From a virus, in IMG/VR virus record IMGVR_UViG_3300020442_000013, positions 1 to 64,000 of that record: a stretch of 64,000 nt of DNA; one strand, written 5' to 3'. Shown here in pieces: positions 3,154 to 50,506 of the stretch. The notes under the pieces are model-generated. The model did no database searches. It saw only the letters and a list, made by a program, of their open reading frames with translations, and was not told the origin of the DNA. The translations under genes were made by a program, and so were the position numbers. The first letter of the stretch is position 1. Every line of letters starts with the position of its first letter.

Positions 3154-3624
3154 TCATTTAGTATACCACAAATAACCTAAGAAAATAACGAAAGCACCAA
3201 TACAAATAACTAATCCTATAACGGCAATTATTTCTAGTATTTGTCTCCTACGTTCTTCTTGTGCATAGATCATTTGTTGCCTTTTCTTTCTAATATCCGC
3301 TTCTGTTTTAATTAACTCGTCCCAAGCAGATGGTCCTCTGGTAGCTACAATAATTTGTCTTAGTTGATCACGCATATCTTGTGCTTTTTTCTTAGCCATA
3401 AAGATTTGCATCGCTTCTTCCTCAACACTACCTGCTTGGAAAAGTTTTTTAAAAATAGGAGGCTTCTTATTCATCTCCTCAGATTTTTTTAGATCAGACA
3501 TGTGATTCATCCAACGGCCTAGATCTCCTGCCATTGATTCTATATCACGTCCTACACTAAATCCGGATTTAATTGCATTAAATGCGGCTGTTGCTCCTGC
3601 AATCGCTGTAATTGGATCTATCAA
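3154..3624 (-). CDS. Hypothetical protein with C-terminal TM helix
   Basis: [16 protein letters not shown]-terminus common in marine phage ORFs; C-terminal hydrophobic stretch. Confidence 0.65.
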
Positions 3625-3698
3625 TCATCTTACCTTCCTGGCTATGCCCTTGTCAAGAAGTTACCCTCTGTAGCAGTATTTATGTTAAATATAGTATA

Positions 3699-4901
3699 AT
3701 GATTGATCTCACCCCTTTTTCTAACACTATAAGTAATCTAAAAGACTCTGGCAACTATAGAGTGTTTAACGATATACTTAGAGAGCGTGGAGAATTTCCT
3801 AAATCAATATGGTACGGACCTTACAATATTAAAAATATTGTCAATTGGTGTAGCAATGATTATTTAGGCATGGGGCAGAGCAAAATTGTTATTGACGCTA
3901 TGCATACTGCATTGGATCAAACTGGCAGCGGATCTGGCGGTACGCGAAACATAAGTGGTACGTCACATTATCATGTGGCGTTAGAACATGAACTGGCAAG
4001 TTTACATAAGAAGCCAGGTGGATTGTTGTTTACAAGTGCTTATGTTGCAAATGAATGGACACTAATCGCATTAAGCAAAATCATTCCCGACATTGTATTT
4101 TTAAGTGATAGTAATAATCACGCCTCTATCATCGCAGGTATAAAACACAGTGGTGCTGACAAGATGATATGGAAGCACAATGATATAAGCGACTTAGAAG
4201 AGAAATTGAAGGAAAACCGATCATCAGGACGCACTCCTTGTATTGTGTTCGAGTCTGTGTATAGCATGGATGGTGACCACTCCCCAATTTCTCAAGTCTG
4301 TGACCTTGCTGAGCAATACGGTGCGATGACCTACATTGATGAAGTTCATGCTGTTGGTTTGTATGGACAAACGGGTGCAGGATACTGCGAAGCAGTAGGG
4401 GAAGACCGTGTTGATATAATCAACGGAACCCTTGGCAAGGCTTTTGGAGTTCAAGGGGGTTACATTGTGGGAGATAAGGTCGTCATAGACGCAATCCGAA
4501 GTGTAGCTAGTGGATTTATTTTCACCACCTCCATGTCACCCGTTATATGTGCAGGTGCTCTTGCTTCAATTAAATACCTTAAGGATCACAATGAGCTAAG
4601 AGAACGACATCAAGAACGTGCTATAAAACTTAAAAAAGATTTGACAGAAGTTGGCATAGAGGTGTTAGATTGTGCGTCAACTCATATTGTACCTGTGATG
4701 GTACGTGATCCAAAAAAATGCAAACTTATGAGCGACATGTTATTAGATGATTATAATATCTACATACAGCCTATAAACTATCCCACAGTTCAAAGAGGCA
4801 CAGAGAGATTAAGGATAGCACCTACTCCTTTACATACAGATGCAATGATGCATGATCTTGTTGAAGCATTAAGGAAAACATTTAAGCGAACGAAAGGATA
4901 G
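3699..4901 (+). CDS. hemA: 5-aminolevulinate synthase (PLP-dependent, Shemin pathway)
   Basis: [37 protein letters not shown] (PLP lysine), [14 protein letters not shown] motifs. Start placed at MIDL. Confidence 0.93.
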
Positions 4902-10994: not shown

Positions 10995-11225
10995 TTGACT
11001 AGTTGGATAGATGTAAACGAAAGACTACCTAAAGTAGGCGAACCATGTTGGTATTATTTCGAGCCTGTTGGTAGGCATAGAGGCAAGTTCCACGGCTTGT
11101 ATGAAGATGAGAACGGAAAAACTTGGGAAGGTATGCATATATTTGCTACTGACTATGGCTGGTTAACTGGAGATGTCACTCATTGGCATCCTGATCAAGA
11201 GGAGAAACCTAATGTCCCTGAATAG
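10995..11225 (+). CDS. DUF551-like protein
   Basis: WIDVNERLP ... VTHWHP. Confidence 0.7.
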   Translation: MTSWIDVNERLPKVGEPCWYYFEPVGRHRGKFHGLYEDENGKTWEGMHIFATDYGWLTGDVTHWHPDQEEKPNVPE

Positions 11226-11574
11226 CTCTAATATATCTAAAACCTCTGAAGCTCGTAACAGCTCTGAAGCTCTACACCCTCTGAAGCTCTGCATTGCTCT
11301 GATTGCTCTGACGGCTCTTAGTGCCTGCGGGTCCTCTTATAGGGTGCCTGATTGGGCGGCCGGCGATCCAAAATGCCGGCAAATTGGTTGTGGCCAAGGT
11401 TTGGTTTTTTATCCAAATGAAAAATTTGGAGCCAAAAGACAAGCCAAAGATTTCTATGGTTGGGAAATGGGAAAAACCTCATCTGCCTATCCTCCTTCTG
11501 ATCCAAAACATTGGGAACTCAAAGCCAAAGAAGCGGCCGCAGGCCAAACTCCATGGCATTGGAACAATCAATAA
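11212..11574 (+). CDS. Putative lipoprotein; 5' end overlaps a CTCTG repeat array
   Basis: GAGGAG RBS; hydrophobic stretch with LSAC lipobox. Confidence 0.5.
   Translation: MSLNSSNISKTSEARNSSEALHPLKLCIALIALTALSACGSSYRVPDWAAGDPKCRQIGCGQGLVFYPNEKFGAKRQAKDFYGWEMGKTSSAYPPSDPKHWELKAKEAAAGQTPWHWNNQ
11214..11350 (+). repeat. Phased YCT (CTCTG-type) degenerate array 1
   Basis: ctctgaag x3, gctctg x4 and related units at about 9-nt spacing. Confidence 0.7.
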
Positions 11575-23686: not shown

Positions 23687-24001
23687 GGTCTCCATGGTTC
23701 TAGAGGGGTCGATAAATATTGATATGGATAGAAGAGAACAGATAACACAGATGCTGAAGGATCGTATAGCACGGTTCAAGAGGGAGAATGCCCACATATG
23801 GGAGAAACCTAGTAGGCTGTTTAAGGATGAACCCAAAGAGCCTGAGAAGAGGGAACTCACACCCGCAGAGAAAATGAAACGTGATCTAGGGTTCTAAAAG
23901 TATTTGAACTATGCCTCTCGTCACCTCAGACGAACCAAAATTTTCTATAGTTGAAACCGTGGGAAAATGTGAATCTCACCGTGATTTCCATACGAGAGGG
24001 G

Positions 24002-24250
24002 CCTCTTAACCCTGATCTAAGGGCCCTGTACGGTGCCTTAAAACCCCCCTTATCCTGAACCACCCTGATCGGCCTGAAGGCCTCTATACGCTTCTCTTAC
24101 ACGCTCTAAGAAGGGGTCTGAACGGTCTGAACTCTTTACTATGTTCTTAACACGCTCTTAACGCTCTGAATCAACTCTGTGCCCTAACCTTTTGAAATTG
24201 TTGGATTTTTTGGCCTCGGGAGCTGTCTTTTCGCTCGCCCTCGCCTCTAC
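24002..24250 (+). repeat. Phased YCT degenerate array 2 (non-coding)
   Basis: cctga, tctgaa, ctctta, ctctga and cctct units every about 8-11 nt in an ORF-free region. Confidence 0.7.
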
Positions 24251-24549
24251 TATGTATTATCCAATAAAATCAATGTGTTAGCAGTCAAAGTTAATGTAAT
24301 GGATGAGGAGGGGTGTCACTAATATCGTTCTTTCACCTAAGTCATTGTTATTGTTGGCTTTTTCGGGGTCTACCTCGTTCTTTCCGTTCTTCTACGTAAC
24401 CTCTTGATTTTGTTGGATTTTTTTTGGAGACACACAAGTCAGAATTCGGCCAGCCTGTAGCCCTTTGCTTTTTTTCTGCCCCTTGCTGTTTTGCTTTATC
24501 CATTTTTTTGCGGACGGGGTCGCTTAAAGCAGTTTCTTATTATGTTTAT

Positions 24550-24578: not shown

Positions 24579-24672
24579 CCTCTTTTTCGCCAAAAAAAAA
24601 ATAAATTAGGGGTTGACTTTTGGACAAAATGAGACTACTATGTATATAACAATTAAGCAATAGGAGGGCACA

Positions 24673-24810
24673 TTGCAAAACTTACTAAACAAAATTACAC
24701 TTTGGTTTTTGAACAGAGCATACGAGCAGATGGAGGCTAGTGGCGACTTGCAGAACGCAGACGATGTGGCTGAGCATATAGAAGATTATTTTACTAATTT
24801 TGTAAAATAA
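24673..24810 (+). CDS. 45-aa immediate-early protein, TC/CC-free
   Basis: Hand-translated from TTG: MQNLLNKITLWFLNRAYEQMEASGDLQNADDVAEHIEDYFTNFVK; own promoter; GGAGGGC RBS. Confidence 0.6.
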   Translation: MQNLLNKITLWFLNRAYEQMEASGDLQNADDVAEHIEDYFTNFVK

Positions 24811-24875
24811 CGGTTGACTTTTGAGCAAAATGAGGTTATTATAATATTAACAATTAACAATAAATGAGGGCAAAT

Positions 24876-25379
24876 ATGATAAACACAAAAAACTTAACAG
24901 CAGATTTTAACGTAGATTTACACGTAAACGATTGGACAAAAAACATAGTAAACACAATTAGGGTTGTTGAAGACAGAGATGTGTTTACACAAGTTGAAAA
25001 AGATTTTGTGATACAGTTTTTGGTAAACACGCTAGACGGCTTAACACACATTAACATTGAAAGCAGACAAGAAGGTGCAGGCTTTTACAGAATGTGTGAT
25101 GCACAGGAAGTTATGACGCACTTAACAACATTGTATGATAACAACAATGCTAATGAAAGCATAGATGATAGCAAAATAGGCTGGCAGTTTACACTTGCAG
25201 ATGCTGCAGATGCATTGTTAGGCTACGATACAGAATACAGGGATTGTATTACAGAAAATTTTGATGATGCTTGTAATGATGCTTGTGAGGACAAGTTTTG
25301 GCAACAACACGCAGACGCAGATTTTACTACACTTGCTGCAAGAATATTTGCTAAAAACGGTTACAGCTGCTACGAATAA
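24876..25379 (+). CDS. Acidic proline-free early protein, TC/CC-free
   Basis: Own promoter; GAGGGCAA RBS; no Pro, all Ser codons AGY. Confidence 0.75.
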   Translation: MINTKNLTADFNVDLHVNDWTKNIVNTIRVVEDRDVFTQVEKDFVIQFLVNTLDGLTHINIESRQEGAGFYRMCDAQEVMTHLTTLYDNNNANESIDDSKIGWQFTLADAADALLGYDTEYRDCITENFDDACNDACEDKFWQQHADADFTTLAARIFAKNGYSCYE

Positions 25380-25459
25380 AACGGTAAAAAAAAGGTTGAC
25401 ACTATAGCATTTGTGTGCTATAGTGTTACTATAATTACAAAAGCATACGGAGGGCAACT

Positions 25460-25885
25460 ATGCAAAACACACGTTATGAACTACTAAACAAACTACAAGC
25501 TAAACTTGGGGACGCGATTACTATTTACGACGAGTATGAAGGCGAGCACAGACTGAATTTTTATAGTGTAAGCATAAACTTGGGAACAGGTTTTGCTGGG
25601 AACTACAAAGGTGGTTACTGGGGCGATTGTAATATTAAGAATGACGAGCTTAAACTTGCATTTGTATATGGGGACGTATACGATGAAGGTGAAGAGTGTT
25701 TTGGTGAGGGTACGGTACAATTAGAATATGCTGACGGTAGCGGACTTGCATACACAGGCGAGTTAGATAAACTTGTAGAGCGTAAGGTTGAAGAGCTTAC
25801 AGGCGGACTTATAACTTGTAGCGGTAGCGAACAGGGAATGCAGGGAGACGATTACTTGAGTGTAGACGTAGACGAGGCTGCATAA
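25460..25885 (+). CDS. Acidic proline-free early protein, TC/CC-free
   Basis: Own promoter; GGAGGGCAA RBS; C-terminal SEQGMQGDDY.S.DV motif. Confidence 0.75.
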   Translation: MQNTRYELLNKLQAKLGDAITIYDEYEGEHRLNFYSVSINLGTGFAGNYKGGYWGDCNIKNDELKLAFVYGDVYDEGEECFGEGTVQLEYADGSGLAYTGELDKLVERKVEELTGGLITCSGSEQGMQGDDYLSVDVDEAA

Positions 25886-25949
25886 AACGGTTGACATATT
25901 GGATGTTGTGTGCTATATTAAAGCATAATAAAAATTAAGAGGGCAATAC

Positions 25950-26219
25950 ATGACACACTTAACAATTTATGCACTAGCACATGACAGCAATAGCACTGAG
26001 GACGTTTATATAAGTTTACATGACAAAGTAAAACTTTACATAAAACTAGCAGACAGCACAGGCAAAGCACTTGTGCAGCGTAGCGTCTCAAATTTTAAGC
26101 AGGCAATAACTGCATTGCAATGTTATAACATAACACACGTAGACATAAGCTACAACGTGGACGTAACAGACAGCATAAACAAACTAGCACACAAAATATA
26201 TTTGCACTATTTAAAATAG
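25950..26219 (+). CDS. Proline-free early protein, nearly TC/CC-free
   Basis: Own promoter; GAGGGCAA RBS; only two TC (26086, 26088). Confidence 0.7.
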   Translation: MTHLTIYALAHDSNSTEDVYISLHDKVKLYIKLADSTGKALVQRSVSNFKQAITALQCYNITHVDISYNVDVTDSINKLAHKIYLHYLK

Positions 26220-26235
26220 TGCTTATATAGTACGA

Positions 26236-26244
26236 CCCCGCTGC
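26236..26244 (+). repeat. CCCCGCTGC box (copy 3)
   Basis: cgaccccgctgcta identical over 14 bp to 10805-10818. Confidence 0.7.
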
Positions 26245-26335
26245 TAAGACACAGAATAAATGAGAAATTGGCAAATAAGAGGTTGACATTGTAAATAGAC
26301 TATGCTATAGTATAAACATAATAAGGAGATGGCAC

Positions 26336-26524
26336 ATGAAATGTTCGATTTGTAAGACGACTATTAAGAAGGATCCCCTAAGCGGTTGGGATGGTGGACA
26401 CAATGCAGAACCGGCAAGTCCGGGAAGATGTTGTGATGATTGTAATACGCACATTGTTATCCCTCTGCGTATTAACAATTTGTTTGCGGCTTCGAAGCCG
26501 ATTCCTAAAGAGGCACAATGCTAG
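26336..26524 (+). CDS. Small zinc-finger-like protein
   Basis: CSIC...GHNAEP...GRCCDDCN..IVIP.R; own promoter. Confidence 0.7.
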   Translation: MKCSICKTTIKKDPLSGWDGGHNAEPASPGRCCDDCNTHIVIPLRINNLFAASKPIPKEAQC

Positions 26525-26823
26525 ACAACTGGAGAACCGACTTTGACTGGACCGATCCTGAAGACGCTCCGGTCAGTTGGTCCGAGTTGGACGCTGAGTT
26601 AGAGAAGCAGAAAGCTCCTTGGGACCGGCCTGAAGCCCAGCAGACCCTGAAGGTCCGATTCGTCAATGGCGGCTCTGTAGGATGCCTTAGGACGGCCTCT
26701 GTAGTCAGACAGGAGCTCTGCGAACAGACTCTTATGCCGCTCTTAATAATCCAAGACCCTTGGAACCCACAGGAGACCCTAACCTGTCGTTGGTATGACA
26801 ACGAATGGGTCCATGAATCATAG
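26518..26823 (+). CDS. Hypothetical protein overlapping YCT array 3
   Basis: GAGG RBS; central part is dense in cctga/ctctg/ctctta units. Confidence 0.45.
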   Translation: MLDNWRTDFDWTDPEDAPVSWSELDAELEKQKAPWDRPEAQQTLKVRFVNGGSVGCLRTASVVRQELCEQTLMPLLIIQDPWNPQETLTCRWYDNEWVHES

Positions 26824-26889
26824 AATAACCTGGCGTCTTATTAGGTCGGGAGATGTTCGAAGTTCTTTCGAGGCCGAAAGGCGAGAGGC

Positions 26890-26918
26890 ATTATAGCACA
26901 TTTTATGCTATAATGCAA
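26890..26918 (-). promoter_or_regulatory. Leftward promoter (TTGCAT-17-TATAAT) embedded in an 11-bp inverted repeat
   Basis: gcattatagca (26888-26898) / tgctataatgc (26906-26916). Confidence 0.6.
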
Positions 26919-26926
26919 GTATTTTT

Positions 26927-27271
26927 TTAATTACTTAAATAAACGTAATTTTCTAAATTAATATTTTGCATTGCTGTATTTTCTACAACTTTATAAAATA
27001 AGCTGCTTTCATCGTAGTATGTAATGTTGTTAGCAAAAATTTCCATAATACTTTGTAAGCTAACATAATCGTTAGTTTCGTTTTGCACATATAAACATTG
27101 TAGTTGTGCAAAAATGTTAGCACTATTTAAAAAATAACTTGCACAAGTACAATCCATTTCCACAATTTGTAAATTATTGTAGCAATTTTCAATTACTTTG
27201 TACAATGTTTCCATGTGTACACTTTTAGTTTTAGTTGTAGTTGTTTTAGTTATTGTTTTTAATTGTTGCAT
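26927..27271 (-). CDS. Proline-free early protein; coding strand TC/CC-free
   Basis: MQQLKTITK...; leftward promoter TTGCAT (27334-27339)-17-TACATT; plus strand has no GA/GG over 26888-27372. Confidence 0.7.
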   Translation of the reverse strand: MQQLKTITKTTTTKTKSVHMETLYKVIENCYNNLQIVEMDCTCASYFLNSANIFAQLQCLYVQNETNDYVSLQSIMEIFANNITYYDESSLFYKVVENTAMQNINLENYVYLSN

Positions 27272-27446
27272 ATAATACTGCCTTTTTTTAGTTAATGTTT
27301 TATTGTGTTTAATGTAGCACATAATTTTCCAAAATGCAACCGTTTTTTTCCAAAATATTAAATTAAAAAATGGTAAAAAAAAGGTTGACAGTAGCAGAAA
27401 ATTGTGCTATTGTTAACTATAAAATAAAAAAGCGAAAGGGCAAAAG

Positions 27447-27647
27447 ATGGGAATGAGCAGTTATATTTTAGATTTAGAAGAGCAGTTTGACACAAAGGTG
27501 GTTGAAGCTATTAAAGAGAGCGAGCACGTGAGTGAGGCTATTGCTGGGGCTATGAAGCACAGAGACTTGGTTGCTAATTGGACAGACGACGAGATTGAAG
27601 ACTATGTGCATGACGGCTGGAACGAGGTTTGGAGAGATTATTTATAA
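27447..27647 (+). CDS. Acidic proline-free early protein, TC/CC-free
   Basis: Own promoter; AAGGGCAA RBS. Confidence 0.7.
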   Translation: MGMSSYILDLEEQFDTKVVEAIKESEHVSEAIAGAMKHRDLVANWTDDEIEDYVHDGWNEVWRDYL

Positions 27648-27945
27648 TTTGGTAAAAAAAAGGTTGACAATTGAATTTGTTTGTGCTATAGTATAAGCAC
27701 AATAAGAGAACGAGGGCAAAATGCAAATCATCAGATCAAAGAAATCATTGGCTACCCTAAACAACCGGAGGTTCTTCACCCCACCTACCTTGGCAGAGAT
27801 ATGCGAGAACCCAGAGTGGAAGCCGATCACCCTGCCAGACGAGCTAGACGAGCAATTTAACTTTTTTGACATTTTGGATAAAAAAAGGTTGACATCCGAA
27901 TAACGGTGTGCTATAGTATAAACATAATAAGAAAGCGAGGGCAAG

Positions 27946-34015: not shown

Positions 34016-35026
34016 ATGAGATGTGGTTGGGCCGACAACATACTGGTAGTTGAAACAGATGGGTACACCAGAGCCTGTTGTACAGAACCAAGAGAAAGTG
34101 CAAGAATTGCACCCGTCAAAAATGGTATGTTGCAAGCATGGCAATCCATCAAACTACAACAACTTAGAAAAAATCTTGAAACAGGTTACAGTGATCAAAC
34201 TGAACCATACTGTTCACGTTGTAGGGAACTAGAAAATGCAGGTCAAGCAAGTCTGCGTACTGGGCAACCCATACTAGGTGATCCAGGAGAACTAAAAGCA
34301 ATACAGTTCAAACTTTCAAACGTATGTCAACTAGCATGTGCCCATTGTGGACCTGCCCTTAGCAGTCAACACAACAAATGGCGCAACGGTGGCTCAGGTG
34401 TTATTCGTTCAGTAGAAGACATACAACCAATCATACGAGATCTCAGAGAAGTATTACCACAACTTGAATGGATCAAGTTCACAGGTGGCGAACCTTGGCA
34501 TGACACGCAACATTGGCGTATACTAGAAGGTATCAAAGATTTAGATCGCAGTCATTTAGAATTACGTTACATTTCAAATGGTCTTGGCAAACCCTGGGAA
34601 CATCTTTGGGAAGGTTATAAAAACATTCGCATTGATATTAGTGTAGATGGACTTAGAAGTCGTTACGATTGGTTTCGTAGGAACAGTGATTATGAACGAG
34701 TGGTTCGTAAATTTGAATACTACAACATGAACTATGATGTTAAGATTGCTTGGTCTATGACACCGTGGACCGTAGAAGACTATGCGGAAGCAAGAGAAAT
34801 ATTTGACAACATGTATACCACGCCAGTTGTGTTTCCTATGTGGGCAAATCTAAAAATGGTACCCCAAGGACTTCTTGCACTACCAGCAGATACTCCAGGG
34901 CTAAACACAATGAAGGGTGATGCAACCAGTTTAGCAGTACTAAGAAATTGGAGTGAACGTTGGGATAAACGTTGGGGAACACTGGGTTGGGGTAAACAGT
35001 TGTATCCGTGGTTATATCATGTATAG
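34016..35026 (+). CDS. Radical SAM protein with N-terminal SPASM/twitch-like domain
   Basis: CQLACAHC, FTGGEP, ISVDG; N-terminal C..CC...C.RC. Confidence 0.85.
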   Translation: MRCGWADNILVVETDGYTRACCTEPRESARIAPVKNGMLQAWQSIKLQQLRKNLETGYSDQTEPYCSRCRELENAGQASLRTGQPILGDPGELKAIQFKLSNVCQLACAHCGPALSSQHNKWRNGGSGVIRSVEDIQPIIRDLREVLPQLEWIKFTGGEPWHDTQHWRILEGIKDLDRSHLELRYISNGLGKPWEHLWEGYKNIRIDISVDGLRSRYDWFRRNSDYERVVRKFEYYNMNYDVKIAWSMTPWTVEDYAEAREIFDNMYTTPVVFPMWANLKMVPQGLLALPADTPGLNTMKGDATSLAVLRNWSERWDKRWGTLGWGKQLYPWLYHV

Positions 35027-40281: not shown

Positions 40282-41253
40282 TTATAGCTTCTGATACCAT
40301 CGTTTGTCAAGTTCTATTTTGGTTTTTGTTTGTGCTAGTACAGCACCTATACAGCTACCAGGATCGCCTGGATTTGGTGGTACCCAACAGTTTTCCCATT
40401 CTTTTGCCACTAGCCCTATTGCTTCTTTGTTTAAGGCGCCGCCTCCTGCGAAAGCCACAGCCTTACCATGATTTGTTTTCCAGTGGGCATAGTTGCTTAA
40501 TATCTTTACACAATAATTAAATACTGCTTGTGTAGCGGCAGCAATATCATACATGTCTTGTTTTGAAGTAAGTTCAGGTCTCCACCACATGCAACCTCTA
40601 TGTAAGTTTTCACGCATGCGTATAGAGGGTTTATGTGCATCTTGATTTACCTTTATAATTTCTTGTAGCATGGTATGCATAAGTTTAATACCATCACCTT
40701 TCTTTGCCCATTCAGAGACAAGATACTCATCTCGTTGTGGCACTAATCCTATACGTTGTGTCATAGCACTATAAAAAAGTCCTAGGCTATGTGGATATCC
40801 TTGACTGTGAATCTTTTTTAATTTATTATCTTTTCCATGCCATATTGTAAGAGTTTCAAATTCACCTATACTATCTAAACATATTACTGCACAGTCATCA
40901 TGTGGCTGTGTGTAGTATGCATATGCGGCATGACTTAGATGATGTTTTGTATAGCTTACAGGCACATCTAAATCCCAACGTTTCAAGTAATTAGGAATAT
41001 TATTTTCTTTCAACAACCATCCTTGTCCGGCTCTCCATTGGCGAAGTGTTTTTAAGAAAGGCTTTTCATACCATTGTATAGACCAAGGCGGACCAAAACT
41101 TTGTTTTGCAACTTCTATCTGTGTCCAGTTAAAGTCTGGATCATTTGGAACTTTTGAAAAGTCTTTTGCTAGACTTGCCCATAAAAGTTTATCATCATCA
41201 AATACAGCAAGACTTGCATCATGGCTATTACCAACCATTCCCCATTGTATCAT
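40282..41253 (-). CDS. Carbamoyltransferase N-terminal (Kae1-like, NodU/CmcH family) domain only
   Basis: HDASLA, HHLSHAA.AYY, D.IGE.ET, HSLGLFYSA.T, AGG.ALN, PGD.G..IGA. Confidence 0.8.
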   Translation of the reverse strand: MIQWGMVGNSHDASLAVFDDDKLLWASLAKDFSKVPNDPDFNWTQIEVAKQSFGPPWSIQWYEKPFLKTLRQWRAGQGWLLKENNIPNYLKRWDLDVPVSYTKHHLSHAAYAYYTQPHDDCAVICLDSIGEFETLTIWHGKDNKLKKIHSQGYPHSLGLFYSAMTQRIGLVPQRDEYLVSEWAKKGDGIKLMHTMLQEIIKVNQDAHKPSIRMRENLHRGCMWWRPELTSKQDMYDIAAATQAVFNYCVKILSNYAHWKTNHGKAVAFAGGGALNKEAIGLVAKEWENCWVPPNPGDPGSCIGAVLAQTKTKIELDKRWYQKL

Positions 41254-41909
41254 ACTACTTCCTCCATAGCCCATTGTCTTTCTTTACACCACCAACATTC
41301 ACCACAAGGTACAGTAAAGTTTTGTGTTGATTCTATGGTGCCCTCACAACTCCAAGTCTTTTCAAACAAAGACATAATATCTAATTTTTTATACTGCTTC
41401 ATTATTGTTCTTTTGTCGTTTTGTGCAAACGGTCTGAATACTGGTACTAGTAACCATTCGTCTTCAATTTTTAAAGGCATAGGCTTATCTCTACGTTTGT
41501 CTCTGCCTTCATCTAATATTCCTTTTGGTGGATTCATCGTAACACCATTAAGCATAAGATCTAAATTATATTTCTTAGCAACATTGTGTAACATACTTTT
41601 TCTATATATTACATTTGGATCAGTACCAGCTTGTTCACCCCTCTTACGCTGACGTTTAAAAATATGATCTTTAATACTTTTTGTGCCTGTAAGTCTTATT
41701 ACCTCTTGCACTACATCTTTTGCATATTGTTCATTAAAATTATTTTCTGTGTTTAATGATCCGGTTATAACATATATGTCAGCTTCATTTATACACTTGA
41801 CTAAATTATAAAGCAATAGAGCACTATCTGCTCCACCACTAACTTGTACACCAACACGTTTTACGTTTGGAAAAATTGTCCATAAGTCTGCGTCTAGATA
41901 ATTTTCCAT
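41250..41909 (-). CDS. PP-loop ATPase, QueC-like
   Basis: SGGADS; P....K; TWSC...CGECWWCKER zinc motif. Confidence 0.7.
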   Translation of the reverse strand: MENYLDADLWTIFPNVKRVGVQVSGGADSALLLYNLVKCINEADIYVITGSLNTENNFNEQYAKDVVQEVIRLTGTKSIKDHIFKRQRKRGEQAGTDPNVIYRKSMLHNVAKKYNLDLMLNGVTMNPPKGILDEGRDKRRDKPMPLKIEDEWLLVPVFRPFAQNDKRTIMKQYKKLDIMSLFEKTWSCEGTIESTQNFTVPCGECWWCKERQWAMEEVV

Positions 41910-47289: not shown

Positions 47290-47746
47290 TCTCAATCCCG
47301 TGTTCTTCTGCAAGTTCTTTAAGTTCTTTTTTTGTAGATATTGTAGCAAGTAATTCAACCTCTTTTTGTTTCATGTTAGGGTAAATTTGTTCTAAAAATT
47401 TTATTACAGCATTATTATTGGCGCCTTTTTTCTTAAAGCCTATATACGGATGGAATTTTATTTTACCCCAAGCACCGCTCATACATAACAGTTGCCACAT
47501 AAGTTCTTGATGTCCATTTTCTCTACCTACACCTATTGTATTAAAGTGCTTATTGTAGTATTCATTTGTTTTGAATACTGCGAGCTCCATTTCTTCTCTA
47601 GACCCTTGTACGGCGCTTATATAGCGATTAAGAAGCCAAAAAGACACCTGTTTACGTTCTTCAATAGAAAGTTCTTTCCATACATTTTTGGCATTCATAT
47701 CAATTGCCGCTAGTATATCTTTTATTGGGAGTTTCTGCGATGCCAT
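47276..47746 (-). CDS. Putative clamp-loader small subunit (gp62-like)
   Basis: WLLNRYIS...N.Y.N, FH..I..KK motifs; replication-cluster context. Confidence 0.5.
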   Translation of the reverse strand: MASQKLPIKDILAAIDMNAKNVWKELSIEERKQVSFWLLNRYISAVQGSREEMELAVFKTNEYYNKHFNTIGVGRENGHQELMWQLLCMSGAWGKIKFHPYIGFKKKGANNNAVIKFLEQIYPNMKQKEVELLATISTKKELKELAEEHGIENAKF

Positions 47747-48414
47747 TCTTCAAGTTCCTCAGGAGTGTTTATTTCCATGCCATTAAAATCAACTTCAAAC
47801 ACAGACATACTGTATCCATTCTGTAACCATCTCAGTTGTTCTAATTTTTCAATTTGCTCTTCTGTATATTGCATCAAATTTTTGTAATTTGTTAGTGCTT
47901 CTTTTGTATATCCGTATACACCAAGATGATGTGAACCATACTCAAGACTAGATCTACAAAACCAATGTGCTTTGTTATCTGTATGTATAAGTTTAACACT
48001 ATTAGGATCTTTTTGCAAGTCCTTATTCATCTTTGTATACACGGTCACAACGTCCTCGCTCAAAGCAAGTCCATTTGCAATACTTTTAATTATTTCAACT
48101 GTTATGTCTGGCATGTCACCTTGAACATTGATAATACCATCGTAAGAATCTAGCATAGGAAAAGCAGAGCATCTTTCTGTGCCGTTATCATAATATTTCT
48201 CCATATAAAAGCAGTCGCCTTCAGGAAATAAACTATGCACACGTTTGCTATCTGTTAAAACATATACGGGAAATCCTGATTCCTTACATCTGTCATAAAC
48301 TCTTTTTACCATTGGTTTTCCGTTAAGTAAAGCAATAGGTTTTTCAGGAAATCTAGTACTACCCATTCTTGCAGGAATACAAATTGCATAATTTAAATTT
48401 TTATGTTTCATCAT
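47722..48414 (-). CDS. kdsB: CMP-KDO synthetase-like cytidylyltransferase
   Basis: IPARMGSTRFPEKP.A, GTER, INVQGD.P, H.GVYGY, EKLEQLRWL, INTPE. Confidence 0.85.
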   Translation of the reverse strand: MMKHKNLNYAICIPARMGSTRFPEKPIALLNGKPMVKRVYDRCKESGFPVYVLTDSKRVHSLFPEGDCFYMEKYYDNGTERCSAFPMLDSYDGIINVQGDMPDITVEIIKSIANGLALSEDVVTVYTKMNKDLQKDPNSVKLIHTDNKAHWFCRSSLEYGSHHLGVYGYTKEALTNYKNLMQYTEEQIEKLEQLRWLQNGYSMSVFEVDFNGMEINTPEELEEWHRRNSQ

Positions 48415-49213: not shown

Positions 49214-50506
49214 TTACACGGCTACGAAATAAACTACACTTATTGCTGCTATAGCTAGGCTACCTGCATTAAGTTCATCATGCTTACCACTAAGTGCTTT
49301 GATAACTGCATAAGCAATAAAGCCTAATGCAATACCATGAGCAATACTAAAAGTCAACGGCATAAGCACAGCCGCTAATACTGCTGGTGCATACTCAGTA
49401 ACATCATCCCAATCAATGTCTGCAATGTTACGTAAAAAGTATGTGGCAATAAAGATTAATGCTGGTGCTGTTGCAAATGCTGGAATACTTTGTGCTAGTG
49501 GAGCAAAGAATAAGCAAGCCGCAAACAATACTGCTACTGTTACAGCCGTTAATCCTGTTTTACCACCTTCTTTGATTCCTGCACCGCTTTCAATATACGA
49601 TGTGGTATTCGATGTACCAACTAAGGCTCCTGCTGAAGTAGCTACAGAGTCTGCTAGTAAGGCTCTATCGATACCTTCTACTTCTCCATCATCATTAACT
49701 TTTCCTGTCAGATTAGCAACACTAGTAAGTGTTCCTGCCGTATCAAAAAAGTCAACAAACAAAAATGCAAAAGCAGTACCAATAAATCCTGCGGTAGCAA
49801 TCATACTAAAGTCTAAACTAAAAGCATGTTCTGGACTAGGAATAGCACCTGCAAATCCGTTTAGATCAGCAATACCAAAAATCCAAGCAATAATACTTAC
49901 TGCAAGAATACCAATAATAATTGCACCTGGTACTTTACGTTTGTCAAGCATTGCCATAATAACAAAACCAAGTCCTGTTAGTAACACAGGCCAACTTGCA
50001 ACATCGCCTAACCCTACAAGTGTTGCTGGATTGTCAACTACTACGCCTGCATTTTTCAAACCAATAATGGCTAGAAAAAGCCCAATACCTGCACCTACAC
50101 CCAATTTCATTGATTTGGGAATACTATTAATAATGTATTTACGAGCTGGTGTTACACTCAGTCCGATAAACACAATACCGGCTACAAATACTGCTGCCAA
50201 TGCTTGTTGGAATGTATAACCCATTCCAAAGATTACACCAAACGTAAAGAACGCATTAAGTCCCATACCTGGTGCTAGTGCTACAGGCCAATTAGCCCAT
50301 AACCCCATTATCAGGGTACCGATCACTGCGGCAATGATAGTTGCCGTAAAGACAGCGCCAAAGCCCATACCTGTTCCTTCTGTTGAAAGAATAGCTGGGT
50401 TGACTACAGTAATATAAGCCATCGTAAGAAAAGTTGCGATACCTGCCATTACTTCTGTCCTAACGGTAGTTTTGGCTTTTTCAAGCCCAAAGAGTTTTTC
50501 TAACAT
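49214..50506 (-). CDS. NCS2/AzgA-family purine permease
   Basis: TE..AG..TFLTMAYI..VNP.ILS, APGMGLNAFF, DFFDTAGTL, YIES.AG..GG.TGL, PLTFSIA.G. Confidence 0.92.
   Translation of the reverse strand: MLEKLFGLEKAKTTVRTEVMAGIATFLTMAYITVVNPAILSTEGTGMGFGAVFTATIIAAVIGTLIMGLWANWPVALAPGMGLNAFFTFGVIFGMGYTFQQALAAVFVAGIVFIGLSVTPARKYIINSIPKSMKLGVGAGIGLFLAIIGLKNAGVVVDNPATLVGLGDVASWPVLLTGLGFVIMAMLDKRKVPGAIIIGILAVSIIAWIFGIADLNGFAGAIPSPEHAFSLDFSMIATAGFIGTAFAFLFVDFFDTAGTLTSVANLTGKVNDDGEVEGIDRALLADSVATSAGALVGTSNTTSYIESGAGIKEGGKTGLTAVTVAVLFAACLFFAPLAQSIPAFATAPALIFIATYFLRNIADIDWDDVTEYAPAVLAAVLMPLTFSIAHGIALGFIAYAVIKALSGKHDELNAGSLAIAAISVVYFVAV

Follow-up and report, generated by a model that had tools for sequence, protein, structure and literature searches.

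A strand-specific ban on TC and CC in discrete early transcription units of a marine phage, with Rho-proof transcripts as a candidate explanation

Introduction

What could lead a phage to write whole genes without a cytosine ever following a pyrimidine? This question is raised by six small early genes (g1 to g6) of an uncultured marine giant phage that is represented by a 101,244-nucleotide (nt) IMG/VR fragment (IMGVR_UViG_3300020442_000013), which CheckV rates as about 29% complete, implying a genome of roughly 350 kilobases (kb). The window, i.e., the whole stretch of DNA that was analysed, comprises the first 64,000 nt of this record, and all coordinates given below refer to it. On the message strand of the six genes, the dinucleotides TC and CC (together termed YC; the complement, GA or GG, is termed GR) are almost entirely missing. 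The following sections describe how strict this ban is, which object it acts on and how it is kept in relatives, before the factors that might read YC are weighed against each other.

Absence of YC from three islands

The YC-free sequence falls into three islands: island 1 (24591-26235, + strand) carries four tandem sigma70-type promoters and genes g1 to g4, island 2 (26888-27371, minus strand) carries promoter P5, g5 and a 3' hairpin, and island 3 (27351-27727, + strand) carries promoter P6 (27385-27413) and g6, followed by the promoter and leader that belong to the next gene, an ordinary one. Direct dinucleotide counting on the + strand of 24591-26085 (1495 nt) yields no TC and no CC, while AC (136), GC (81), TT (135), CT (61) and GA (110) are all present in number. 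The sole YC-bearing site between 24591 and a CCCC box at 26236 is GTCTC (26085-26090, + strand). Across 26888-27371, which holds the minus-strand gene g5, it is GA and GG that are both at zero on the + strand, and across 27351-27727 TC and CC are again at zero on the + strand. In the whole 101,244-nt record, the runner-up among YC-free runs measures 157 nt and the runner-up among GR-free runs 217 nt, and no comparable run exists for any other single dinucleotide.

Two null models show how far this lies beyond chance. When the codon order of the six genes was shuffled (5000 shuffles), 35.2±3.9 YC were expected at codon junctions, with a minimum of 22, but none is observed. When the six proteins were re-encoded with the ordinary codon usage of the genome (2000 runs), 67.4±7.5 YC were expected, with a minimum of 44, compared to the two that are observed. 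Proline is absent from all 622 residues of the six proteins, compared to 4.1% in ordinary genes (P about 4e-12), and serine is encoded by AGY 30 times and by TCN once. Because junctions, re-encoding, proline and serine counts all point the same way, the ban is a dinucleotide rule that is independent of the reading frame. An earlier note, made by reading the letters of this DNA, had described the region in much the same terms: no TC or CC over 24591-26085 and 27351-27727, a single GTCTC and then nothing up to the CCCC box, an inverted pattern at the minus-strand gene, six proline-free proteins with mostly AGY serine, a rule on the level of dinucleotides instead of codons, and no simple loss of pyrimidines, as TT and CT stay common. 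The counts agree with this description on each point, and the counts over the whole record together with the codon shuffles of the six genes, along lines that the note had proposed, place the ban far outside the null and rule out TC and CC near their expected frequencies.

The transcription unit as the constrained object

Each of the six genes has its own sigma70-type promoter (GGTTGAC, a 17-nt spacer and an extended -10 element), and most have a GAGGGCAA leader. In island 1, promoter P1 (24613-24641, + strand) consists of TTGACT, 17 nt and TACTAT, and the last YC upstream of it is at 24589-24590. Since no intrinsic terminator was found on the + strand inside island 1, transcription from the four tandem promoters can cover g1 to g4 as a single unit. 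In island 2, P5 lies on the minus strand (-35 element at 27339-27334, extended -10 element at 27321-27311). Two genes between the islands (26336-26823, + strand) serve as internal controls, as they have the same type of promoter and carry 16 and 43 YC, i.e., a normal to high content; these and the genes that follow from 27721 onward share the promoters and the GAGGGCAA leaders of the YC-free genes, with 16-43 YC each. "Early" is therefore a fair label for the YC-free genes, but the claim of the earlier note that they are the first to be transcribed is not established, given that neighbours with normal YC content are equipped with the same promoters and leader.

The borders of the islands indicate which object is under constraint. 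The promoter cores of this window alone are underpowered for distinguishing a constraint on DNA from one on RNA, as ordinary promoters hold about one YC, and the wider set of related loci was used instead. In 47 distinct island starts from these loci, the YC-free run opens at the promoter or just upstream of it; in 11 related loci, belonging to about seven lineages, the last YC lies inside the spacer between the -35 and -10 elements, and no YC was found downstream of the -10 element in any island start that was read. At the other end, island 1 stops 17 nt past its last stop codon, where the CCCCGCTG box (26236-26243, + strand) marks the 3' edge, and island 2 extends through its 3' hairpin (26888-26916). 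This palindrome between converging genes has an 11-base-pair stem, contains neither YC nor GR, and is composed of two back-to-back extended -10-like sequences; by its sequence, it looks like a terminator for converging transcripts. Moreover, the bias flips with gene direction, so that only one strand is purged, and always that of the message.

The constrained object is thus the transcription unit and not duplex DNA as such, because YC is tolerated between the -35 and -10 elements. Within the unit, the constraint could sit on the RNA, on the template strand from +1, or on the strand that is displaced in the transcription bubble, and a reader of the template or of the bubble would leave borders identical to those left by a reader of RNA. 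A restriction-type explanation is excluded, as the ban is strand-specific, follows gene direction and ends at transcript borders.

The CCCCGCTG box is itself a recurrent element. Five copies (10808, 10839, 23638, 23678, 26236), all on the + strand, compare with 0.36 expected, and the box recurs as CCCCGCTGTAAGG near early promoters in four related loci (L070, L073, L086, L092), down to 50% identity of g3. Judged by this recurrence, it is a putative conserved cis element.

Maintenance of the ban in relatives

Homologues of g3 are numerous: 398 were found at E <= 0.001 in a large protein collection, several of them with Tara Oceans labels, and loci encoding g3 relatives were retrieved from IMG/VR (28) and from metagenomes (80). 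They span a wide clade of marine phages at 36-95% amino-acid identity. All g3 relatives at 69-95% amino-acid identity have zero YC, as do many at 47-53%, and in ten YC-free g3 genes the nucleotide identity to the g3 of this phage ranges from 86% down to 46%. Islands in relatives are up to 1.6 kb long. The homologues of g2 in relatives are YC-free as well, and YC-free homologues exist for g5 (in L066, L070 and L071) and g6 (in L071). Avoidance is hence kept despite divergence, which is the outcome of a check that the earlier note had called for, and the note's inference that YC is selected against on the message, or GR on the template, stands. In g4, the GTCTC exception occupies the same place in L071 and L077; it encodes Val-Ser and is kept although GTA AGC would be synonymous, so that it may be a functional site.

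The ban is not tied to particular genes. In some other lineages, the g3 homologue has 7-25 YC, yet a different, adjoining gene is YC-free. Open reading frames (ORFs) with one YC or none number 84 and fall into 22 sequence clusters, including those of g2, g3, g5 and g6, although a few of the clusters are probably out-of-frame artefacts. Over 1629 non-overlapping ORFs, a count that includes near-identical loci, YC density is bimodal: 58 ORFs are at zero and two at 0-5/kb, followed by a thin tail and a bulk at 30-150/kb. A 513-nt ORF family (MKKATQT...; L104, L107, L111, L127, L138) has a YC-free core of about 330 nt; its YC is confined to conserved positions towards the two ends, in part within a conserved STPTISVP segment, which shows that the ban is traded off against protein function. 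The trait also varies between genomes: a 93%-complete, 331-kb relative has one island only, of 742 nt, and in a complete 169-kb relative with terminal repeats (G005) the g3 homologue has a normal YC content and no YC-free island exists anywhere. The trait was lost or never gained in the latter lineage, which is a useful natural contrast. According to these comparisons, the trait is old, under selection and mobile between genes, and it behaves as though a cost were attached to every site.

The phage could be linked neither to cultured relatives nor to a host. Comparison of the region with cultured phages by megablast and blastn, as well as a tblastn search with g3, gave no match, and a host search found no g3 relatives in GTDB species genomes. 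With KdsB as the query, only large contigs of metagenome-assembled genomes (MAGs) from disparate phyla were matched, and these are likely mis-binned phage. Two such MAG contigs of 153 and 335 kb (L153, L154), labelled Neomarinimicrobiota, encode a KdsB that is 51% identical to that of the phage; they are likely contigs of related giant phages that were binned into a bacterial MAG, and hence provide no host evidence.

The encoded proteins

The products are mostly small and acidic. g1 (24673-24810, + strand, TTG start) encodes an acidic protein of 45 amino acids without a family match; g2 (24876-25379, + strand) an acidic, mostly helical protein of 167 amino acids without a family or fold match; g3 (25460-25885, + strand) an acidic alpha/beta protein of 141 amino acids with an invariant SEQGMQG motif; g4 (25950-26219, + strand) a protein of 89 amino acids; g5 (26927-27271, minus strand) a protein of 114 amino acids; and g6 (27447-27647, + strand) an acidic protein of 66 amino acids. 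With the exception of g4, which holds the single YC-bearing GTCTC, all coding strands have zero YC.

Searches of Pfam and PHROGs with the six proteins and four neighbours returned nothing usable. The predicted structure of the g3 protein is confident (predicted local distance difference test, pLDDT, 92) and forms an alpha/beta domain; its invariant residues are a W, an E, a Y and the SEQGMQG motif, and no His, Lys or Arg is invariant. Foldseek comparison of the g3 model with the PDB and BFVD (best E 0.11 and 1.2e-3, the latter to unnamed viral proteins) and VIA-align against 48,161 chains (best Z 4.7) revealed no known fold, and the g3 alignment profile found nothing among PDB sequences. The g2 model, which is weak (pLDDT 66) and helical, has no structural match, and the ESM Atlas gave no leads for g2 and g3. 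From these properties we infer that the six proteins are binding or mimic proteins rather than enzymes, and that they would act as first-wave host-takeover or counter-defence proteins.

Rho as a candidate reader

The best known candidate for the reader is the termination factor Rho, and the reading that leads the field, although we would not yet call it probable, is that the islands give rise to Rho-proof transcripts, i.e., YC-free RNA that escapes Rho. The primary binding clefts of Rho are specific for 5'-YC (PMC12360218), and up to six CC or UC dinucleotides are taken on the nascent RNA (PMC13323073). Rho silences foreign genes, its avoidance shapes the composition of coding strands, and it was recently shown to be a driver of coding-strand purine bias (PMC13323073). 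Phages are known to carry weapons against Rho, namely Psu, N, Q and put RNA (PMC12360218). In the proposed mechanism, the six genes would form a discrete class of early transcription units, the RNA of which would be purged of 5'-YC from about the transcription start to the 3' end and would thus be invisible to a reader of YC in single-stranded RNA (ssRNA). With each of the six primary-binding clefts of Rho gripping one 5'-YC of the nascent RNA, a YC-free transcript would offer nothing for Rho to load on, and the host RNA polymerase could then complete these genes even with naked RNA at the onset of infection. One of the products may neutralise the reader, whereupon ordinary early and late genes could follow.

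Several observations are consistent with Rho. The islands show what is expected of RNA that avoids Rho, in that its ligand 5'-YC is gone and a purine followed by C is kept (AC 136 and GC 81 in 1495 nt). The flip of the bias with gene direction and the borders of the ban at the transcript are in line with a reader of RNA as well. The genome-wide trend has the same direction, with coding strands that are 56.5% purine and that carry 59 YC/kb vs 116 GR/kb, and at the codon junctions of ordinary genes the odds ratios are 0.86 for TC, 0.81 for CC, 1.10 for AC and 1.28 for GC. Conservation as broad as that seen across the clade is more in keeping with a host factor that is nearly universal than with a defence system of patchy occurrence. 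Furthermore, untranslated stretches with more C than G and a high YC content lie just upstream of the islands on the same strand (78 YC in the 500 nt of 24001-24500), and similar upstream YC peaks occur in relatives; by composition, these stretches resemble sites of Rho entry, and as such they would insulate the islands.

Other points weigh against Rho. Loading of Rho is cooperative on several YC that are spread over about 60-80 nt, and because of this cooperativity one or two YC should cost almost nothing. However, the class is strictly zero (58 ORFs at zero and two at 0-5/kb) instead of following a cooperative dose response, and the zero YC, the lost proline and, in one family, the restriction of YC to conserved Pro codons look like a per-site cost. 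This objection is softened by the very large size of phage populations, which can enforce even weak selection. Rho alone also leaves the restriction of the ban to some genes unexplained, as neighbours with the same promoters and the same leader carry normal YC. No Rof-like or Rho-like RNA-binding domains were found in the clade, no recognisable fold was found in the YC-free proteins, and a 5'-proximal YC gradient in ordinary genes, which would be a signature of Rho, is absent beyond the first 30 nt. The reading also presupposes a host that possesses Rho, which cyanobacteria are not known to have. The interpretation given in the earlier note stands in part: selection on YC or GR, the dinucleotide rule and the flip with gene direction hold, whereas its first option, modified virion DNA, is not supported, and Rho was overlooked. 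Its second option, escape from a sequence-specific reader of ssRNA or single-stranded DNA (ssDNA), remains viable and leads to the next explanation.

A possible single-hit enzyme specific for YC

Instead of Rho, the reader might be an enzyme that attacks ssRNA at YC in a single hit, i.e., an endoribonuclease, an ADP-ribosyltransferase of mRNA or a cytidine deaminase. We regard this as possible, with doubt prevailing, and as only slightly less likely than Rho. Such an enzyme might be an immune or abortive-infection effector of the host or the phage's own shut-off enzyme; as any lone YC would expose an mRNA, first-wave genes that are made while the enzyme is active would have to be written motif-free. 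A per-site cost would explain precisely what is difficult for Rho: the strict zero, the bimodal ORFs, YC kept only at conserved Pro codons, the complete loss of proline, and a ban in only a subset of identically promoted genes. The small, acidic products resemble many anti-defence proteins. Preferences of the required kind are known, since some Cas13b and Csx1 ribonucleases (RNases) favour UC or CC and deaminases of the APOBEC/DddA type favour a 5' pyrimidine, and MazF spares mRNAs that lack ACA. A precedent for attack on a dinucleotide is CmdT, which ADP-ribosylates GA in ssRNA (bioRxiv 10.1101/2024.02.24.581662).

These merits are offset by the lack of a known agent: no YC-specific bacterial or phage enzyme is described in the literature that could be searched, and no RNase, ADP-ribosyltransferase or deaminase was identified here among the minority of ORFs that were scanned. 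The trait is retained by a broad clade, which is awkward for defence systems with their patchy distribution, and an enzyme of the phage's own would also strike late mRNAs, with their 59 YC/kb. In a broader form, the reader would be an undescribed enzyme (nuclease, ADP-ribosyltransferase or deaminase) that hits ssRNA or the displaced DNA strand at every 5'-YC and is either widespread among hosts that a large clade of marine giant phages infects or phage-borne; in this form the idea deserves serious consideration, although it, too, stays short of probable. If it were true, the YC-free genes would be a first-wave, attack-proof arsenal, and the phage would be the first virus to recode whole genes, proteins included, against a two-letter target.

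Less likely readings: modified templates, displaced strands and artefacts

As noted above, a reader of DNA could leave the same borders. Modified G in GA or GG context, of the 7-deazaguanine type or other, could hinder the host RNA polymerase, so that genes read from virion DNA would keep a GR-free template; such a lesion would likewise act site by site. Motif-specific modification of G does exist, as phage CAjan is modified at GA and GGC (PMC7544227) and phage iggy at strict GA (PMC10484667). A distant, island-bearing relative (G002) encodes FolE and QueD, and the present record has enzymes of the hypermodification type, for DNA or glycans (a PP-loop ATPase, a carbamoyltransferase, a twitch radical-SAM enzyme and an aminotransferase). 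However, TGT/DpdA (Pfam PF01702) has no match in this record, where the negative covers only about 29% of the genome, or in five relatives, including one that is 93% and one that is 100% complete, and a query with the DpdA of CAjan found no homologue in a search that had no positive control. Of the preQ0 pathway genes (FolE, QueD, QueE, QueC), G002 has FolE and QueD, while the record has only a generic PP-loop ATPase: its "QueC-like" ORF scores 21.7 bits where the cut-off demands 150, and it resembles TilS more closely. CAjan itself, with dPreQ0 at GA and GGC, shows no islands, its longest GR-free (97 nt) and YC-free (111 nt) runs being at chance level (about 85-87 nt expected). In the islands, every GG is avoided and not GGC alone, and as every early promoter has GGTTGAC, its -35 box would be modified. 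No phage RNA polymerase, multi-subunit or T7-type, was found in the record or in four relatives, the T7-type search having no working positive control; the host polymerase therefore probably also transcribes the late genes, the templates of which carry GR at normal density. Taken together, the first option of the earlier note, GR-modified virion DNA that blocks the host polymerase, is unsupported, with no DpdA found and no islands in CAjan, and we consider template modification improbable.

Still less credit is given to a cytosine deaminase or another modifier of ssDNA at 5' pyrimidines that would hit the displaced non-template strand of busy early genes. A cytosine after a 5' pyrimidine is the classic context of APOBEC and DddA, and the constraint starts near the -10 element, where DNA melts, and tracks the non-template strand. 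Nevertheless, neighbours with equally strong consensus promoters keep normal YC, the islands are not enriched in TT or CT, as a simple conversion of YC to YT would imply, and damage to the non-template strand leaves the current mRNA unchanged. A non-functional origin (compositional quirk, imported cassette or assembly artefact) found no support, has next to no probability and is effectively refuted by conservation, null models and divergence data: the island run exceeds every other run of the record about tenfold in length, the pattern recurs in about 100 independent assemblies and persists through up to 54% nucleotide divergence, and promoters and leaders in the islands follow the consensus of the genome itself. 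Whatever probability the named readings leave belongs to something else.

Other elements of the record

Apart from the islands, the + strand carries arrays of a YCTGA-like motif (e.g., GCTCTGAAGC) with a period of about 9-10 nt at 23990-24290, 11180-11400 and 26540-26830. Their YC density is about 15%, and C exceeds G in the first array (84 vs 58). The array at 23990-24290 is non-coding and lies directly upstream of island 1; that at 26540-26830 lies within an ORF of 101 amino acids (26518-26823). The arrays might admit Rho or bind another protein, or they might be the antisense strand of an RNA rich in purines. A consensus early promoter on the minus strand (24578-24550) points leftward into the first array; downstream of it there is no convincing gene, only a basic ORF of 51 amino acids (24503-24348) without a ribosome-binding site, and the product of this promoter may be a purine-rich RNA that does not code for protein.

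Genes elsewhere in the record specify helicases (DnaB-type and others), a primase, a DNA polymerase, UvsX-like and gp32-like proteins, lipopolysaccharide sugar enzymes and a purine permease homologue. The last of these, the ORF at 49214-50506 (minus strand), carries the PHROG label "tail protein", whereas its best tblastn matches are annotated as yieG or as anion transporters of the sulfate-permease family; it may thus be read as a purine permease homologue with an apparently mistaken PHROG label. For a phage, carrying a transporter gene would be unusual. The PP-loop ATPase, with a weak QueC/TilS-like match, adjoins a NodU/Nol-like carbamoyltransferase, and a twitch-domain radical-SAM enzyme, a class I/II aminotransferase and KdsB are encoded elsewhere in the window; this set lies at 40282-41909, 34016-35026, 3612-4901 and 47722-48414. 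These enzymes could serve the modification of DNA or of glycans.

Meaning and comparison with known systems

The avoidance of sequences that are read by the host is already known for restriction sites, for MazF motifs and as a graded purine bias against Rho. No paper describing an absolute, strand-specific dinucleotide ban in discrete transcription units, strong enough to erase proline, was found in a search of the literature, nor was a YC-specific RNase, deaminase or defence. The phage and its relatives provide a clean natural experiment: genes with and without the ban lie next to each other under promoters of one type, and among related phages the trait has shifted from gene to gene. Should Rho be the reader, phages would be able to overcome termination through their sequence alone, and marine giant phages would face Rho as a front-line barrier. 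If it is not Rho, the pattern would be the footprint of an RNA-targeting immune or shut-off enzyme with two-letter specificity that is as yet unknown. Either way, a design rule emerges: YC-free coding for Rho-proof or attack-proof expression.

The ban resembles the avoidance of restriction sites, in which a short recognition sequence is likewise wholly lost under selection. Restriction avoidance, however, is symmetric on the duplex and usually genome-wide, whereas the ban described here is strand-specific, directed by the gene and ends at transcript borders. With CAjan (GA/GGC, PMC7544227) and iggy (GA, PMC10484667) the phage shares that the complement of the avoided step overlaps with DpdA motifs, but no DpdA was found in the clade, all GG is avoided, and CAjan itself has no islands.

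A further parallel is provided by enzymes that read a short motif in single-stranded mRNA and spare motif-free transcripts, such as MazF with mRNAs that lack ACA, T4 RegB at GGAG, and CmdT at GA. In this phage, the missing motif is YC, and the searched literature describes no enzyme that recognises it. Targeting of GA in the manner of CmdT is excluded by the 110 GA in the 1495 nt of the island 1 coding strand. The CmdT authors appear to deem escape by removal of so short a motif implausible (bioRxiv 10.1101/2024.02.24.581662), but for a subset of genes the removal of a short motif has occurred here.

With regard to Rho, one likeness is the Rho-avoiding purine bias (Nat Microbiol 2026, PMC13323073), in which the sense strand loses UC and CC, codon choice is constrained and foreign genes are affected. 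That bias is graded and genome-wide and was described for Bacillota with runaway transcription (PMC13323073). The phage shows a graded form of it as well, with 56.5% purine and half as much YC as GR. It differs from that case in the absolute ban, which includes proline and is limited to a handful of genes beside ordinary ones, and a dependence on Rho would here be an inference. The proposed escape is also akin to what is achieved by Psu of P4, N and Q of lambda, put RNA of HK022 and the host protein Rof/YaeO (PMC12360218), in that phage transcription would escape Rho early. No Rof-like protein was recognised in the clade, and no Psu-like protein either, although no search was aimed at Psu. The known anti-Rho devices, be they proteins or RNAs, target Rho or RNA polymerase, whereas in this phage the escape would lie in the sequence of the message itself.

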